DNA from: a virus
IMG/VR virus record: IMGVR_UViG_3300000059_000319
Coordinates: 6,592-70,591 of that record
Length of the DNA stretch: 64,000 bases
Direction: 5' to 3' (one strand)
The position numbers and the translations under genes were made by a program. Positions 3,764 to 48,536 of this stretch are shown in pieces (position 1 is the first letter of the stretch; every line of letters begins with the position of its first letter). The notes beneath the pieces are model-generated. The model searched no databases, was not told the origin of the DNA, and worked only from the letters and a program-made list of their open reading frames with translations.

Positions 3764-4639
3764 ATGGCAAGAAGACATTATAATATAAATACAGACAAAC
3801 CATTACCTGAAACATGGGGTGAATGGGAATTTGAAATTGATTTAACAAGCTTATCACCAGTTAATGTATTGGTTTGTACAATAGAAGATGATGGTGATAT
3901 AGGTTCACCAACGAATAAAGCAGGTGTTATTATAGATTGGGGTGATGGCTCAGAAACTGAAACAATAATGGGTGGTGAAGAATTAAATGCTTGGAATATC
4001 AGACATACATTCCCATCTAACACCAAATACATTATAAATATAAAGGAAGTTTACTATGGTGGTAAGAGACAAGAAAGAATAACAAGATTATATTTTCAAC
4101 TTCAATCTGTTAACTGCTTATCGAGATTGATAAAATATAAATCAAGTGGCATTACTTCATTAAATTATGTGTGTCATAACAGGACATTATTCACAGGATT
4201 TAGTGATGATTTTAAATTTGAAACACCAAATGTTACCCAAGCTACATCTATGTTTTATAACTGCAGTAGTTTAATTGAGTTTCCAACAGGTGTATTTGAT
4301 TTATTAACAAAGAATACAACATTTTATTATGTATTTAATAATTGTACATCTTTAATTACAGTTGGAAATAAATTATTTAACCATAACAGTTTAGTGACAT
4401 CATATGCTGATTTATTTTATGGGTGTAAATCCATGACAAGTAGTATAAATGAAATATTTGATGAAGCTGATTTATCAGAAGTGAATAATGTAAATAATAT
4501 GTTTAGGAATTGTAATAATGCAACAGGTTCTGCATTAGATTTAATAGATGAAATACCACAAATTGCAACACATTCAAGTACATTTACCAATTGTACAGCA
4601 TTATCAGATTATAATTCAATACCATCAACTTGGAGATAA
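3764..4639 (+). CDS. PKD-like + BspA-type LRR putative receptor-binding protein
   Basis: MARRHY start, IDWGDG, F.NC.SL repeats, SDYNSIPSTWR end; homologue 40617..41471. Confidence 0.75.
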   Translation: MARRHYNINTDKPLPETWGEWEFEIDLTSLSPVNVLVCTIEDDGDIGSPTNKAGVIIDWGDGSETETIMGGEELNAWNIRHTFPSNTKYIINIKEVYYGGKRQERITRLYFQLQSVNCLSRLIKYKSSGITSLNYVCHNRTLFTGFSDDFKFETPNVTQATSMFYNCSSLIEFPTGVFDLLTKNTTFYYVFNNCTSLITVGNKLFNHNSLVTSYADLFYGCKSMTSSINEIFDEADLSEVNNVNNMFRNCNNATGSALDLIDEIPQIATHSSTFTNCTALSDYNSIPSTWR

Positions 4640-5017
4640 TATTTTTACCTCAAAAACATTTCCATCATTAAAAGCAATATAATGATTTTCAGATATATAA
4701 TATAAATCAATAAATATTATACTTTCAGGTTCAAGAAGTGAGAATATAAAGCCTGATTGACCATCAGACATACCATAATAGGGTAATGAAATCCACTCAG
4801 GATATTTAATGGTGGCGAATAAATCATATTGATAATTATATGTTTGGTTAATAGACTCTTTAATTGAATCTATTTTCAATTCATTTCTTTTAAGCACCTG
4901 TACAAAATATTCTATTTCAGCTTTTTCTTCTTCTGTAAAATGATGTGTAACTGTATGTGTGTCGTTAACAGTACAGCTAATCAGCATAATAAAAAGAACT
5001 AATAAAGTTTGTTTCAT
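4625..5017 (-). CDS. Antisense moron, putative lipoprotein (superinfection-exclusion candidate)
   Basis: Signal peptide MKQTLLVLFIMLIS-C; own TATATTTG promoter at 5219-5226 (minus strand). Confidence 0.65.
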   Translation of the reverse strand: MKQTLLVLFIMLISCTVNDTHTVTHHFTEEEKAEIEYFVQVLKRNELKIDSIKESINQTYNYQYDLFATIKYPEWISLPYYGMSDGQSGFIFSLLEPESIIFIDLYYISENHYIAFNDGNVFEVKILSPS

Positions 5018-5212
5018 TTGAGATAAAAATAAGAGTGATGTAGCGTATAATCTAAAATAGACTGAAAGGACTGCTACACCCCAACTGACCTAAAATAAAC
5101 CTACTACTACACCACCTTATATGATGCAGCAATACAGTTTATTTTTTAGTGGTCAATTTAATAAAGTAGCAGTTTATCAGTCACTAAAAAATATACTCGT
5201 TGCTATATTCTT
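5018..5212 (-). ncRNA. Structured 5' leader RNA, conserved with 42154..42352
   Basis: Multiple helices with compensatory changes between A and B; G-U pairs work only on the minus strand. Confidence 0.65.
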
Positions 5213-5268
5213 CTGATACAAATATATTAAAAAAAGTCTACAATAATCTTTATTAAAAAGAGATTTAG

Positions 5269-5826
5269 ATGAAACAAATAATAACAAGTAATGGATATAT
5301 CCAATTAATTGATGCTGCTAATGATAAACAACAAGGTTATCAATATGGTGAATTGATGTATAAGATTAATGGTAATGATATATCATTCTACTTTCAGGAA
5401 GATTATTTATATGATAACACTTTATTTTCTGCTTATATTCCTAAATTACAAATAGATGGTGTTACTTATACCAAAGAATTTATAGGTGGTGCACTTGATA
5501 TTATATTTAGGGGTAATGGTTCTGATGGTAGTGGTGATATGTTTAAGGCTCAATATGATACTAATGATAATGGTATTGTAGATAATGCTGAAAAACTAAT
5601 GGGTTATTCACCTGCTGATTTACCTATAAGTACAGAAGTTCAATCTGCTATTGATGGTATTAATGATGATTTAGTTGATGTTAATACCAAAATAACATCC
5701 AATACTAATAAGTTAACATATATTGCTACTGATATTACAAATATTAATGTAGAAATCACATCAATAAATAATAAGATTGGTGATATTGACACTATTCTTG
5801 ATAATATAAATGGGGAATCTATATAA
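5269..5826 (+). CDS. Second fibre/adaptor protein with coiled-coil C-terminus
   Basis: N-terminal ~80 aa resembles the N-terminus of fibre 942..2849; homologue 42413..42841. Confidence 0.65.
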   Translation: MKQIITSNGYIQLIDAANDKQQGYQYGELMYKINGNDISFYFQEDYLYDNTLFSAYIPKLQIDGVTYTKEFIGGALDIIFRGNGSDGSGDMFKAQYDTNDNGIVDNAEKLMGYSPADLPISTEVQSAIDGINDDLVDVNTKITSNTNKLTYIATDITNINVEITSINNKIGDIDTILDNINGESI

Positions 5827-10860: not shown

Positions 10861-11101
10861 ATTAGTATATTTGTTAATGTAGGGTGGTGCAATTCCAACT
10901 ATGTCTTAACTCTTAATTCCCTTCAACCTCGAAGTGGTGATGTCAAGACCCTAGAATAATTACAAAGAATATTTAATGTTATTAAACCATATTGGGTTGA
11001 TTTCGCAGAATCAACTTAGATAGGTTGACTTAACAGTTTCACAAGGCTGTTTTTGAAGAAACAGCTACATAGGGTTGTTTAATTAAATTAAGTTGAAGAA
11101 G

Positions 11102-11248
11102 ATGAGTAAAATTAATAGAAAATTCCAAGAGGAAATAGATTATGTACCATATACTGAATTATGTAATGATAATCTTCCAACAGATGAAGATTATGTCTTA
11201 TATGCAGAAATGATGAAAGAAATAGAAATTGAAGAATTTTATAGGTAA
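11102..11248 (+). CDS. Small acidic protein (48 aa), not in ORF track
   Basis: MSKINRKFQEEIDYVPYTELCNDNLPTDEDY...; conserved with 48537..48698. Confidence 0.75.
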   Translation: MSKINRKFQEEIDYVPYTELCNDNLPTDEDYVLYAEMMKEIEIEEFYR

Positions 11249-11419
11249 TAAAAAAAATGAAAAAATATTTTACCAAAATGCTAATTTTTGGACTTGGTGA
11301 CATATTTATATATAAAGGATGATGATTAAATGGTGTAGGTTATTTTTTTGGTTTACTTCCCACACCACATCTTCCAAAAAATAAACCAAAGAAAAATAAA
11401 AAGTAATAGTAAAATCAAA

Positions 11420-12538
11420 ATGAAAACAACAAATGACCAACAAACGATTAAAAGATATAGAACATATGTGGCTAATAACCTAACTGTTATCAAAGATAAT
11501 GCACTATATAAGGTATTGGTGAAATTATTAAGCCTTCAAATGAAGGAAGTAAATAAAGCAGTTAAGAATAATCTACCAACAGATAATATATCATTCCAAT
11601 ATTCATTAAATGAATTTCGTTTGGACTTGCAAATGGGCAAAGCTACAATTGTAAAAAAAATGAATAAACTTGAAGAAGTTGGATTGCTGACAATTGACAA
11701 ATCCAAGAATGAAAAAGATGCTTATAACAAGAACACATACCAATTAAACATTAGCAAATTGGAAGAAATTGAAGATACATTAAATGGTATGAGAAGATTA
11801 GAACGTATAGAATACATCAATCAACTATTTGGTTGTATAACAAGCAAAGGATTACAAAAAATAAAAGAAGAAAGATTAAGTAAAATAGAAGAACAAAAAG
11901 ATATGATTATTAACACCCAATCAGGTATAGAAATACAGCCATCAGAGATAAATAATACCCCAACAGGTATTGATGATAATGAAGAATTATTCCCATGGGA
12001 AGAACAAATTGAAAAGATTGAAATAGCTGCATCAGTACAATATCCAACAGAATATGGTATAAAAGGTGATACATTATTAACAACAACATTACCAACTGTA
12101 CAATTTGATAATATTGAATATCCTGATGTCGATGTTGATATTGAAGATATTAAGATATTTAATATGGAATCAATTGTTACAGAAGTTGCAACAGTTGAAG
12201 ATGATGAATTTACAGGTGAATTATTATTTAAAGATTGGACACCAATAGCAGAAGAAGTAAAAAAAGAGATACCCCAACTTAATTTAATTAAAGAATTGGA
12301 TGATTTGGATATTAATGTAACTCCTGAAAAAATGGAAGTGATTAAATTTAAACTAACATCAACAGATATATATGATTTAACCAAATCAATAGAATGGTTA
12401 TTAAACCACTATAATTCACCAATTAAGCAACCATTTAGAGATAAAATGGAATTTAATTCAATATCAGCAATTACTTCATTCTTAATAGATAAGGGTAGAC
12501 AAATATCAAAGATGAAAAAGCAATTTTTATATCAATAA
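11420..12538 (+). CDS. Winged-HTH replication initiator-like protein
   Basis: SLNEFRLDLQMGKATIVKKMNKLEEVGLL...NTYQLN wHTH pattern; syntenic with 48785..49678. Confidence 0.55.
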   Translation: MKTTNDQQTIKRYRTYVANNLTVIKDNALYKVLVKLLSLQMKEVNKAVKNNLPTDNISFQYSLNEFRLDLQMGKATIVKKMNKLEEVGLLTIDKSKNEKDAYNKNTYQLNISKLEEIEDTLNGMRRLERIEYINQLFGCITSKGLQKIKEERLSKIEEQKDMIINTQSGIEIQPSEINNTPTGIDDNEELFPWEEQIEKIEIAASVQYPTEYGIKGDTLLTTTLPTVQFDNIEYPDVDVDIEDIKIFNMESIVTEVATVEDDEFTGELLFKDWTPIAEEVKKEIPQLNLIKELDDLDINVTPEKMEVIKFKLTSTDIYDLTKSIEWLLNHYNSPIKQPFRDKMEFNSISAITSFLIDKGRQISKMKKQFLYQ

Positions 12539-28598: not shown

Positions 28599-29801
28599 TT
28601 ATAATGCGATTTTCTTATTTAAATTTTTCATATTTTCCTTTATAGTGCTATTCATTATTTTAGCATACCTTTGGGTCATTCTGCTGTTGGTGTGACCCAT
28701 CATAGCCTGTACAGAAGATAAATCAACATTATTATTTAGTGATACTGTTGCAAATGTGTGACGTGCTAAATGAAAGTGTAATTCTTTCTTAATCCCACAT
28801 ATATTACCAATTTCTTTTAAATATGCATTAACCTTTTGATTACTACACACAGGTAAACGAAAATGATAATCACTATTATTATATTTGGTTACAATATCTT
28901 CTGCTATTGGTAATAAGGGAATGCTTGACATAATATTAGTTTTCTCCCTTTTTTTCATTATCCACTTATCACCATTATCATCAAATACTATATGTTCATC
29001 AAATTTAAGTTCATTACAATCTATGTAAGCAAGACCTGTCAGACAGCTAAAAATGAATATATCCCTTACACAATTAAGTCTATGATTACCAAAATCTTTA
29101 TTATATATTTTCTTTATTTCATTCATAGTTAAATAACCTATATCTACTTTTTCAAGTGATAATCTAATATTTGCAAATGGGTTATTGGGTATTATACCAT
29201 CATTCCAAGCTATTAGACATATCTTCTTTAAATTCTTCATATAGTTAATTGATGTATTGTGACCAATTTTTAGTGTGGTTCTTATATAGTTGAACCAACC
29301 ATCAAGAAATGATTTATTGATTTCAACCATTTCTATATCAGTTCTATTATACTTTTCTTTTAGATAAGCTTTAAGATGGGTTAGGGTGGTCATGTGTTTT
29401 TGCCATGCAGCATATGATACACCATTTTTCTTATATAATGCTTCATATTCATCATTATGTTTTTGATATAGTTTTACAAGTGATGTATCACGTTCATCAA
29501 TTTTACCTTGAAACATATCTTTAATAGTATGAATATTTACAGGTATGTTTTTCATTAATAGCTTAGACTGACATTCATATAATTTCAATCTTGATAGGTT
29601 GATGAAGTTGTTGAACTCGATAGATAATTCATCATCACCAATTGCAATCTGTTGTTCTTGTAACCATTTATCAGGTTCTATTTTTCTTGGTAGTGTTAGG
29701 ATTGTTCTTTCTTTGTTAATAGTAATGGCTACTTCAAGTGGTGCAAAGCCTTGTTTGTTTACTTTGGTTTGTCTAACTGTAAAAAATAAATTGAAATTCA
29801 T
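28599..29801 (-). CDS. int: Tyrosine site-specific integrase (Bacteroidota arm-binding + SAM-like type)
   Basis: RDIFIFSCLTGLAYID, HLARHTFAT, MGH, TQRYAK catalytic motifs. Confidence 0.95.
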   Translation of the reverse strand: MNFNLFFTVRQTKVNKQGFAPLEVAITINKERTILTLPRKIEPDKWLQEQQIAIGDDELSIEFNNFINLSRLKLYECQSKLLMKNIPVNIHTIKDMFQGKIDERDTSLVKLYQKHNDEYEALYKKNGVSYAAWQKHMTTLTHLKAYLKEKYNRTDIEMVEINKSFLDGWFNYIRTTLKIGHNTSINYMKNLKKICLIAWNDGIIPNNPFANIRLSLEKVDIGYLTMNEIKKIYNKDFGNHRLNCVRDIFIFSCLTGLAYIDCNELKFDEHIVFDDNGDKWIMKKREKTNIMSSIPLLPIAEDIVTKYNNSDYHFRLPVCSNQKVNAYLKEIGNICGIKKELHFHLARHTFATVSLNNNVDLSSVQAMMGHTNSRMTQRYAKIMNSTIKENMKNLNKKIAL

Positions 29802-40616: not shown

Positions 40617-41471
40617 ATGGCAAGAAGACATTATAACATAGAAAATAAAGTACCTCAATATTGGGGTGCATGGGAATTTGTAATTGATTTAACATCAGCT
40701 ACATCATTAACTGTTGGTGTATTTTCAACTACATCAAATTATTCTACTTCATATAATCGAAAACCAACATTAATTATAGATTGGGGTGATGGCACAACCG
40801 AAACAAAAGAACTTGCTGCTACATCTACAACCCATCAACATACATTTCCATCTAAATCAGTATTTACAGTACATATAGATGAAGTATTTATACCAAATGA
40901 AGAACAAGCAAGGGTAACAAAATTGTTATTTAATGCACAATCATATGACTGTTTGACCCATATAAATATTTATAAATCAGATGAAATAACCAATATTGAC
41001 CAAATATGTAATAATAGAAAAAAATTGATAGGTTTTGGTAATGGTTTTAAATTTGAAGTACCTAATTGTTTAACTACATCAGGTACGTTTTATGGTTGTA
41101 CAGGTCTTACATCATTACCGAGTGGAATATTTGATATTATGACTAAAATAACATCATTCTATTATATATGTCCTAACTGTACAGGGTTAACATCATTACC
41201 ATCTAAATTATTTAGATATAACACTAAATGTACCAATTACAGTCAGATATTTGCATATTGTTCTGCACTAACAGCTAATTTAAATGATGTATTTGATGGA
41301 GCAACTTTAAATAAAGTAATTAATACTTCATATGGATTTAGAAATTGTAAGATTACAGGTGAAGCATTACCAATAATTGCTAAACTAACATCAGCTACAA
41401 CCATATCAGGTACATTTAATAACTGTACCACATTAACAGATTACACATCAATACCTGCAACATGGAAATAA
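40617..41471 (+). CDS. MARRHY PKD-like + BspA LRR putative receptor-binding protein
   Basis: Homologue of 3764..4639. Confidence 0.75.
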   Translation: MARRHYNIENKVPQYWGAWEFVIDLTSATSLTVGVFSTTSNYSTSYNRKPTLIIDWGDGTTETKELAATSTTHQHTFPSKSVFTVHIDEVFIPNEEQARVTKLLFNAQSYDCLTHINIYKSDEITNIDQICNNRKKLIGFGNGFKFEVPNCLTTSGTFYGCTGLTSLPSGIFDIMTKITSFYYICPNCTGLTSLPSKLFRYNTKCTNYSQIFAYCSALTANLNDVFDGATLNKVINTSYGFRNCKITGEALPIIAKLTSATTISGTFNNCTTLTDYTSIPATWK

Positions 41472-41532: not shown

Positions 41533-41907
41533 TTATTCTCTCATTAACGATGTACCACCCCTTTTTGATTTGGCATCATCTACTGACATATATACTTTAC
41601 CTTCTTTAATAACTTCAAAACCATACAAATCACTTTTAATCCAATAAGAACCATCACTACCTTCTTGCCAATAAGTGTCATATACTTTTTGTGTACCATT
41701 CCAAGTGTATTCATAGATTATTTTAGCGGTTTTGTCTTTGTTTAAAACATATTTGTTTTTAACATTTCCATCATAACTTTTTTCACCATAATAGTAAACA
41801 ATTGGGTATGAATCACCCGATTCATTTTTATCATCATTTACCACTAAATAAATCAGCATCCCAACAACACCAATAAAAAAGCAAATCACATAATTTTTCA
41901 TAATCAA
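41533..41907 (-). CDS. Antisense moron, N-terminally anchored membrane/exported protein
   Basis: N-terminal hydrophobic helix; same slot as 4625..5017 but unrelated sequence. Confidence 0.65.
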   Translation of the reverse strand: MIMKNYVICFFIGVVGMLIYLVVNDDKNESGDSYPIVYYYGEKSYDGNVKNKYVLNKDKTAKIIYEYTWNGTQKVYDTYWQEGSDGSYWIKSDLYGFEVIKEGKVYMSVDDAKSKRGGTSLMRE

Positions 41908-41937
41908 TTTATTTTTAAGTTATTAAAATATTATTTC

Positions 41938-42153
41938 TTATCGAGGGGGTGAAGAATAAAAACCATAATCATCTAAATCAGAATAATCATATCTATTCTG
42001 TTTTTCGTTTTCTCTAATTTCTCTTTTCAATCTTATCATTTCTTTTTCAGTCTCTTTTATTTTTTTCTGAATAGAAACAATTTCAATTGTTAAATAAGAT
42101 AATATTATGATAATTAGAATGGTAGCAATTGTGTAGTATGTAGAAGTTTTCAT
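41938..42153 (-). CDS. Antisense moron, single-TM coiled-coil protein
   Basis: TM helix then coiled coil; first gene after the structured leader. Confidence 0.6.
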   Translation of the reverse strand: MKTSTYYTIATILIIIILSYLTIEIVSIQKKIKETEKEMIRLKREIRENEKQNRYDYSDLDDYGFYSSPPR

Positions 42154-42352
42154 AAAAAAAAGTTGATGTAGTACATAATTTAAATTGAGTATCGAAGGAA
42201 CGGCTAAATCCCAATCTGTACCAAAATAAACCTGCCACTACACCAACCATATGATGCAGTAACACAAGTCTATCTTTTAGAGTGCAGATTTTCAAAAAAT
42301 TAGCCGTTTTTCGAGTACCTCTAAAAAATATATGCGTTGCTTATATTTTTAT
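42154..42352 (-). ncRNA. Structured 5' leader RNA, conserved with 5018..5212
   Basis: Same helix order with compensatory changes; TATCTTTG promoter at 42360-42367 (minus strand). Confidence 0.65.
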
Positions 42353-42412
42353 TCTAACACAAAGATAGTTAAAAATCATTCACCTAAATCTTTATTATAA
42401 AGAGATTATTAA

Positions 42413-47645: not shown

Positions 47646-48536
47646 TGGTTTGAAGTAAATGAAAAAATATAACTGAAATGAAAAGTATTTATGGGTTGGA
47701 ATGAATAAACATTACCAACCTTTTTTCTTGTTATATATTCTTATAAGAATTATAAATTTTATCATTATTAAATAAATGAAGTTTTTTAAAATTATGTAGA
47801 AGTGTTATAGATTTTATCATTCCTTTTATTTAATAGTATATAATTTAATAATGAAAAATTAATAGTAAATAATTAATAATATATACCTAAAAATTAAGAA
47901 TAAAAAATAATTAATAAAAAGAAATTTTTGAATACATATTTTTGATAATTCTTGCAGAATCTATATAGAATAGTTAAGGTTAATTATTTGCACAATTATA
48001 AATTGAATTGAAATCGAAGATTGAAATGATAATTTATAATCCATATTATTGAAAAAAGATAATACATAATTCCAAGAATAAGATTTTAATGGAATGGTTG
48101 AAGATATAGTATTAATTAATTTAATTATTCCAATATATAAAATAATATAGAACCGCACAGACCCCTAAAACCTTTCAGAACATCATTTAAATCATTTCTA
48201 AGACACTTTATCTACCAATCCGACAGTTTGTATATCCAAGCAGAATACAATTAGTTAAAACTTCTTAAAATAGAAAAGATTGAAAAAGAATTAACAGAAA
48301 ATATTTTGCAGTCTGATGAAAATAATGCATAAAATATTTCTCTTTCTCAATCCTTTTTAGTATATTTGTAGTAGAAATTAAGGTTAGAGAAAAACACAAT
48401 CCTTTCCAATTTCTTAATCAATCAATTTAAAACAATAAAATAATAGTAACAGGTGCAGTAGATTATCTGCACCATCTGCTATTGTCTTATTGTTTTTTTT
48501 ATTTATAAAAATTAGAATTTAAAATATTTATAATAT

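Follow-up and report, generated by a model that had tools for sequence, protein, structure and literature searches.

A minus-strand leader RNA with two predicted alternative folds precedes exchangeable envelope-protein genes in two tandem prophages

Two sister prophages lying within a 64,000-nucleotide stretch of viral DNA (referred to here as the window) each carry a non-coding leader between a promoter box and a small set of minus-strand genes. Comparison of four copies of this leader, together with structure modelling, indicates that it has two folds – a long rod (fold I) and a pair of hairpins (fold II) – and that both exist, are kept by compensatory changes, and are specific to the minus strand. 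On the predicted structures, the leader probably decides whether the envelope-protein genes that it heads are transcribed, and it may well be a terminator/antiterminator leader in which the rod is the default read-through state.

Genomic setting

The window, part of a 75-kb IMG/VR provirus record, contains a tandem pair of diverged sister prophages, which are each 37-39 kb in length and share 70-80% DNA identity. Integrase, O-like replication, large terminase subunit, portal and fibre genes are present in both. A tyrosine integrase on the minus strand closes each unit (at 28599-29801 (-), and at the record end beyond the window), and we therefore read the arrangement as two heterologous sister prophages placed head to tail. 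The host is likely to be a member of the Bacteroidota, because the closest cultured relatives of the portal are phages of Nonlabens (a flavobacterial genus, 25% identity), the GC content of the window is approximately 28%, its genes lack Shine-Dalgarno sequences, and the runs holding the window DNA are labelled insect gut metagenome. Among approximately 186,000 species genomes in a genome collection, the sole portal relatives (L011 and L012) lie on short contigs of two small MAGs that are labelled Clostridia and in which SusD is absent; either these are mis-binned phage contigs or the wider phage group extends beyond Bacteroidota.

Nearly all genes are carried on the plus strand, and the leader-headed unit is among the very few minus-strand units of each prophage. 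The leader cassette – promoter, leader and cargo genes – sits between adhesin genes and a gene headed by a phage late motif, the latter being located approximately 1.7 kb upstream of the portal. This palindromic motif, ATCTTTATTAWAAAGA, is found on the plus strand 15-30 nt before many plus-strand start codons (motifs of this type are at 915, 5245, 13179, 16942, 21410, 24718, 30471, 33503, 37788, 42387, and others), and the genes back-to-back with leaders A and B are both preceded by one. Its probable role is that of a late promoter or operator specific to the phage. The coordinates of the leaders, their structural elements and the genes that they head are collected in Table 1.

Table 1. Positions of the leader copies, their predicted structural elements, and neighbouring genes and motifs (window coordinates unless a locus is named)
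Feature	Coordinates	Strand	Remarks
Leader copy A	5018-5226	-	Between TAnnTTTG box and cargo ATG (5015-5017)
Leader copy B	42154-42367	-	Between TAnnTTTG box and cargo ATG (42151-42153)
Leader copy C	L008:4185-4387		Phage with portal 92% identical to that of copy A
Leader copy D	L032:2337-2534		
Copy A promoter box TATATTTG	5219-5226	-	Matches Bacteroidota -7 box TAnnTTTG
Copy B promoter box TATCTTTG	42360-42367	-	-7 box match
Copy A non-coding leader RNA, ~195 nt	5018-5212	-	Putative start to cargo ATG
Copy A fold I rod, helices P1-P7, ~57-60 pairs	5045-5196	-	Proposed antiterminator
Copy B fold I rod	42172-42332	-	
Copy A rod apex, P6+P7	5092-5145	-	CUGCAUCA pairs with UGGUGUAG
Copy A segment 1 (UAUUUUUUAGUG)	5182-5193	-	5′ strand of H1ext; rod base in fold I
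Copy A segment 4 (CACUAAAAAAUA)	5140-5151	-	3′ strand of H1ext; overlaps A-rich 5′ strand of P6
Copy B H1ext hairpin	42271-42330	-	UAUUUUUUAGAG (42319-42330) with CUCUAAAAGAUA (42271-42282)
Copy A fold II 3′ hairpin	5029-5120	-	Proposed terminator stem; UGGUGUAG (5107-5114) with CUACAUCA (5036-5043)
Copy B fold II 3′ hairpin	42161-42248	-	UGGUGUAG (42238-42245) with CUACAUCA (42164-42171)
Copy A U-rich tract (UUAUUUUUAU)	5023-5032	-	Directly after 3′ hairpin, 5 nt before ATG
Copy B U8 tract	42154-42161	-	After 3′ hairpin, then ATG
Copy A cargo, 130-aa predicted lipoprotein	4625-5017	-	Signal peptide with LISC lipobox
Copy B cargo 1 (B1), 71-aa protein	41938-42153	-	One membrane helix and a coiled coil
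Copy B cargo 2 (B2), 124-aa membrane-anchored protein	41533-41907	-	
Copy B cargo, both genes	41533-42153	-	
Phage late motif	5246-5260	+	Back-to-back with leader A promoter; heads 185-aa gene (5269-5826); bounds cassette there

Four copies of the leader

Copy A had been described in an earlier note, made from the sequence of the window, as a minus-strand leader located between a Bacteroidota -7 box and an ATG, with a homologous copy B in the same DNA. This description holds: the two are homologous non-coding leaders that align at approximately 80% identity. Two further copies, C and D, were located in other metagenome contigs by protein-guided look-up and complete a comparative set of four from three independent lineages, and TAT-N-TTTG is present at the equivalent position in all of them. 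The copy A transcript is expected to start near 5212. Leader A contains no AUG, the sole AUG in leader B opens a frame that is not shared with A, and a small ORF conserved across the leaders was not found. Among the unpaired positions those of the 5′ region are the best conserved, with a GCAACG box and a U6-AG stretch common to all four copies, and this region would be the obvious place for a factor to bind.

Conservation of the leader is at least that of the adjacent coding DNA. Copies B and D are 97% identical across the leader and 80-81% identical in the flanks, and their first cargo genes differ from the ATG on, in agreement with the proposal that the RNA is the fixed part and the cargo exchangeable; the B/D leader is either strongly constrained or recombining as a unit. 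Because the set comprises only four copies from three independent lineages, it does not lend itself to formal covariation statistics. A covariance model (R1) was built from the four copies, and pairs were counted on the alignment fitted to it.

Fold I is a long rod

The minimum free energy (MFE) is -61 kcal/mol for copy A and -57 kcal/mol for copy B (z = -5.9 and -5.7, respectively, against shuffles). Copies A and B account for the four most stable of 4,256 180-nt windows (both strands, GC-corrected), with their plus-strand complements falling outside the top 25. In the four copies the rod has 57 pairs, and 95.6% of the cells are standard pairs, compared with 34-44% in controls with the 3′ partners shifted by 1-3 columns. 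Changes on both sides are seen in eight pairs (0-2 in the slid controls), and none of 500 shuffles reached the observed pairing or covariation score. At the apex of the rod, P6 and P7 together form approximately 24 nearly continuous pairs, and in copy A this apex was flagged by a pattern scan as terminator-like, with a 14-bp stem followed by GGUUUAUUUU.

The helices that had been proposed from copies A and B are all present and changed in the way proposed. Among them are ACTGCTA/TAGCAGT in A versus ACGGCTA/TAGCCGT in B, AATTGACC/GGTCAGTT versus AATCTGCAC/GTACAGATT, and AAAATAAAC/GTTTATTTT versus AAGATAGAC/GTTTATTTT; the apical TGCATCA/TGGTGTA hairpin is also present. The helix TTTAGNG/CNCTAAA exists as well, but it had been assigned to the same fold as the others, and this assignment fails: it crosses P4 and P5, and belongs to the hairpin H1ext of fold II.

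The G-U pairs, 13-16 in each copy, make the minus-strand RNA 14-26 kcal/mol more stable than the plus strand, as had been anticipated in arguing that they favour RNA of this strand. R1 scores 179-198 bits on the minus strand and approximately 18 bits on the plus strand, and matches copy A at 5031-5208 with an E value of 5e-40. The asymmetry in both measures argues that the folded species is the minus-strand transcript and not duplex DNA.

Fold II comprises a 5′ hairpin and a 3′ hairpin

The 5′ hairpin of fold II, H1ext, is formed by segments 1 and 4. It has 12 bp, which are paired in 100% of the cells in the four copies, and a stability of -10 to -12 kcal/mol. One position varies, being U-A, A-U or G-C across the three lineages, and the variable base is correctly paired in the rod too.

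When the 3′ half of the leader is folded alone, the same long hairpin is formed in all four copies (dG -27 to -35 kcal/mol, z -4.2 to -5.9), with values of -27.1 kcal/mol (z -4.3) for copy A and -30.8 kcal/mol (z -5.2) for copy B. Its basal stem consists of UGGUGUAG:CUACAUCA and flanking pairs. The hairpin consensus comprises 28 pairs, and 98.2% of the cells are paired compared with 38-52% when slid; four pairs are changed on both sides, and the observed score was reached by 2 of 500 shuffles. A second, covarying partner for TGGTGTAG had been reported just before the start codon, and this partner is indeed found, as CTACATCA at 5036-5043 and 42164-42171; the 8-bp core is invariant, however, and only the pair adjacent to it covaries, being G-C in A and C versus U-A in B and D. 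In every lineage, several bases within segments 7-8 are compatible with both of the partners available to them, which constitutes coupled covariation, a signature known from the folding pathway of hok mRNA. The earlier suggestion of two mutually exclusive folds thus gains comparative support for each of them across the four copies. Part of the double complementarity could nonetheless be a legacy of internal repeats.

In each copy the 3′ hairpin runs straight into a U-rich tract (U8 in copy B, U6 in copy D, and UUAUUUUUAU in copies A and C), and the modelled hairpin with its abutting tract has the anatomy of an intrinsic terminator. The proposed terminator hairpin is unusually long and has internal loops, and the U-rich tract could be simply an AU-rich translation start region lacking a Shine-Dalgarno sequence, as is typical of this genome. 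Two other candidate helices were rejected. In the first, a local terminator that spares the rod apex, segment 10 pairs with segment 11; this helix forms in copies A and C, but copies B and D have mismatches. The second would join the GCAACG box to sequence lying upstream of segment 6, and differs in register between copies.

Balance and order of folding

The two duplexes that compete for UGGUGUAG (segment 7) are nearly equal in energy, at -12.5 to -16.7 kcal/mol for CUGCAUCA:UGGUGUAG (6:7) and -16.1 to -17.1 kcal/mol for CUACAUCA:UGGUGUAG (11:7). When whole structures are compared, the rod has an advantage over fold II of 4.6-15.5 kcal/mol in every copy. Folding of the growing chain proceeds in the order H1ext, apex, rod in all four copies, with H1ext remaining the MFE structure between its own synthesis and completion of the apex and being lost once the 3′ strands of the rod emerge. 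At no stage of chain growth is the terminator fold the MFE structure, and the rod is the more stable, so termination would need a kinetic trap or a factor. The rod is accordingly stable enough in these models to be the predicted default, read-through state, with termination requiring that H1ext or the 5′ strands be held.

Searches for further copies

Rfam had been named beforehand as the test of novelty. The whole window gave no match to Rfam 15 at gathering thresholds, and the leader is uncatalogued in that release. Below threshold, the best match in the region 4900-5350 was a plant miRNA precursor (E 0.54), a generic long hairpin, and neither IsrK (RF01394) nor C4 (RF01695) gave a match even at E 10. 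Exact-pattern scans of IMG/VR returned only chance matches inside coding DNA (L007, L037), two pattern scans of JGI metagenomes returned nothing, and blastn against phage and plasmid records returned nothing relevant. R1, run on 27 loci from closer and more remote relatives, identified no further members, and the protein routes (portal, 185-aa neighbour and adhesin) led back only to the same four copies. Analogous rods were also sought in distant relatives and the candidates rejected, the most stable windows being coding repeats or ordinary terminators.

There are several partial resemblances elsewhere in the window. In prophage B, a second TATATTTG box at 48361-48500 (+) is followed by a leader with a long-stem intrinsic terminator and a U8 tail (z -5.2); it precedes a small early-region ORF and has an attenuator-like look, and its sequence is unrelated to leaders A and B. 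Prophage A has a TATATTTG box at 10866 (+), and the leader there (region 10866-11420) is GC-richer, with a fold that lacks significance (z -1.6). Immediately ahead of the O-like replication gene, a hairpin at 11326-11400 shares GGTGTAG and A6-TAAAC with leader A. The partial look-alike near 11330 was rejected as a trans target, there being no counterpart in prophage B.

Cargo genes and the cassette

Read directly from their sequences, all of the cargo products are envelope proteins. Pfam and PHROG searches with the copy A lipoprotein were without match, and there is a weak Atlas lead to the Bacteroidota family DUF4948. The cargo genes of A and C and the first of D (D1) encode homologous lipoproteins with lipoboxes, and B2 and D2 encode homologous membrane-anchored proteins. 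The cargo had been described as unrelated between copies, which is correct for A versus B but not across the whole set, since D carries homologues of both the A lipoprotein and the second gene of B. The cargo products are plausibly superinfection-exclusion factors.

One relative, L033, has an empty site in which the adhesin stop codon is followed by approximately 60 nt, the late motif and the next gene, and the cassette is also absent in L010, L030 and L031. From the empty site and the other relatives lacking the cassette it follows that promoter, leader and cargo are one inserted unit, and on these sequence comparisons they behave as a single dispensable insertion, or moron. The features by which phage morons are recognised are all found here: a promoter box of its own in each of the four copies, presence or absence between conserved genes, and independent orientation. 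L033 retains a degenerate remnant of the leader promoter at L033:95-205, an A-run followed by a TGTATTTATA-like stretch, that extends up to approximately the putative transcript start; this places the cassette boundary near the transcript start. L033 may represent a deletion rather than an ancestral empty site.

The genes adjoining the cassette upstream encode DUF285/LRR adhesins (3764-4639, 40617-41471, L008:2937-3806, L032:644-1501, and L033:1-120), which share a conserved C-terminal peptide, TF-NCT-L-DY-SIP--WK. At copy A, the adhesin stop region and the 3′ end of the convergent cargo gene have 15 nt in common.

A model for the leader, and its alternatives

We infer transcription from the promoter box, termination at the U tract, a default state, and the existence of a trigger, and these combine into the following model. 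A host-type TAnnTTTG promoter would give a transcript of approximately 195 nt up to the cargo start codon. In the nascent chain, the small 5′ hairpin H1ext would form first, through pairing of segment 1 with segment 4, and the apical hairpin second. By default, the later 3′ strands would zip onto the waiting 5′ strands to give a rod of approximately 57-60 pairs, which would tie up both terminator strands and leave CUACAUCA single-stranded, such that polymerase reads into the envelope-protein genes. Alternatively, the 5′ strands would stay locked in H1ext, for instance through a protein or RNA bound to the conserved 5′ region, and the 3′ strands would then pair with the 3′ half of the rod, with CUACAUCA displacing CUGCAUCA from UGGUGUAG. 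The resulting long hairpin, with the U tract immediately following it, would stop transcription a few bases before the ATG.

A rival reading, which we consider unlikely, is that the rod is a fixed 5′-UTR structure – for example, a processing site for RNase III or a stability element determining the level of cargo mRNA – and that fold II is an incidental by-product of repeats. This fits with the rod being the thermodynamic ground state in all copies, and with the length of the nearly continuous P6/P7 pairing, approximately 24 pairs being sufficient for RNase III to cleave, examples being lambda sib and the leaders of rnc and pnp. It does not account for the compensatory changes that fold II has of its own, for the significant stability of fold II in isolation, or for covariation in H1ext, and it gives the invariant CUACAUCA and the U tract no role.

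The earlier note favoured a translational switch or antisense-type control. In a translational switch, the ribosome landing site of a full-length mRNA would be masked, either by fold II or by pairing close to the ATG. The fold II hairpin does end 5-10 nt before the ATG, forcing fold II in B and D adds a 5-bp helix that includes the AUG, and with genes that lack Shine-Dalgarno sequences an open AU-rich leader probably matters for initiation. However, the start codon and the preceding 10-20 nt are mostly unpaired in the ground state (mean unpaired probability 0.49-0.67), the helix covering the AUG is missing in A and C, and a stem with an immediate U tract – the arrangement of the alternative hairpin – is the signature of a terminator. 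The translational switch is thus not supported in the form given, and we regard it as quite unlikely.

The leader could also be the source of a trans-acting small RNA, a terminated or processed species of approximately 120 or 190 nt operating in the manner of P4 CI and P1 C4 RNAs, with UGGUGUAG being seqB-like by analogy. One segment with two complementary partners recalls the seqA/seqB/seqC arrangement, an apex-truncated RNA adopts a shape common to the four copies, with three hairpins and a U tail, the pattern scan flagged the apex as terminator-like, and a clear protein repressor was not found among the small set of prophage ORFs scanned. Even so, this reading is very unlikely: a crude duplex-energy scan of both prophages gave noisy hits, none of them at matching positions; the 8-mers are not specifically placed elsewhere, and over-representation of CTACATCA traces to coding repeats in fibre genes; relatives without the cassette (L033, L010) show that it is dispensable for the phage; and the Rfam IsrK and C4 families are unmatched. 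It is scarcely credible that the element acts at the level of DNA – as a recombination site for cargo exchange, an origin, or a protein operator – for while a long imperfect inverted repeat does adjoin exchangeable genes and CTGCATCA-N6-TGGTGTAG resembles a palindromic operator, the opposite strand has A-C mismatches in place of the 13-16 G-U pairs and is 14-26 kcal/mol less stable, R1 gives approximately 180-198 bits on the minus strand against approximately 18 on the plus, the element lies exactly between promoter box and start codon, and a dedicated recombinase was not found nearby.

A related proposal can be added to the terminator/antiterminator model itself. Both sister prophages carry a leader with identical UGGUGUAG and CUACAUCA cores, and cross-talk between them is therefore physically possible. 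By analogy, a terminated stable RNA of approximately 190 nt might pair in trans through UGGUGUAG/CUACAUCA with the nascent leaders of the sister prophage or of incoming related phages, which we consider highly improbable.

Comparison with known systems

[quoted passage not shown] 2026, PMC13401043). Each separates a promoter from the first gene of an operon on a mobile element, and in both a long imperfect stem is extended to give the antiterminator (PMC13401043); here P1-P5 extend the P6-P7 apex, and the MFE structure of the growing chain zips downward. In cATT a weak, conserved upstream stem-loop competes with the extension and favours the terminator, a part that H1ext would play in the prophage leader, and the terminator is in each case just before the first gene (PMC13401043). 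The antiterminator is the default in both, shown for cATT and predicted for the leader (PMC13401043). The two differ in that the central stem-loop of cATT survives in both states, its extension competing with a separate downstream terminator, whereas the 5′ strand of the proposed prophage terminator is the 3′ strand of the rod apex, so that the whole rod must refold (PMC13401043). The hosts differ too, cATT being found on Gram-positive conjugative plasmids with conAn and the leader in a Bacteroidota-type prophage (PMC13401043). There is no evidence for common descent, and the prophage leader, by analogy, would work like cATT but is no member of the cATT family.

The trp-type and protein-dependent attenuators offer a more general likeness, with H1ext corresponding to the anti-antiterminator, the 6:7 apex to the antiterminator, and 7:11 with the U tract to the terminator; as in the trp type, one shared strand is central to the competition. 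Unlike ribosome-mediated attenuators, the leader has no leader peptide and no conserved ORF overlapping segment 1, and unlike classical attenuators it has no recognisable ligand-binding junction, and its antiterminator is a rod of approximately 57 pairs rather than a short hairpin.

The P4 CI and P1/P7 C4 RNAs are likewise phage-borne, and share with the leader a segment – here UGGUGUAG – that is complementary to one partner upstream (CUGCAUCA) and another downstream (CUACAUCA), in all four copies, as well as a link between pairing and premature termination, which is predicted for the leader. In contrast to those RNAs, the three segments are contained within a single 200-nt leader and can act in cis, the cassette is dispensable, and neither the sequence nor the structure is matched in Rfam. 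A further parallel is lambda sib/tI, where a terminator hairpin is embedded in a longer hairpin that forms only in read-through transcripts; the prophage leader also has its proposed terminator hairpin within a longer structure. However, lambda sib lies downstream of int and acts via RNase III and 3′ decay, whereas the structure of the prophage leader is upstream of the cargo.

Prophage control of lysogen-expressed surface genes in Bacteroidota is poorly understood, and to our knowledge few transcription attenuators have been characterised in this phylum. The leader offers a compact test case, with three competing helices that are each marked by natural compensatory mutations, and its cargo is easy to assay, consisting of lipoproteins and membrane proteins encoded next to phage receptor-binding genes. 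If terminated leaders do pair in trans, they would provide a Bacteroidota phage with an RNA-based layer of cross-talk or immunity similar in kind to P4 CI. Should the rod-or-terminator logic hold, it would extend the zipper-type principle (PMC13401043) to a different phylum and to a different kind of mobile element.
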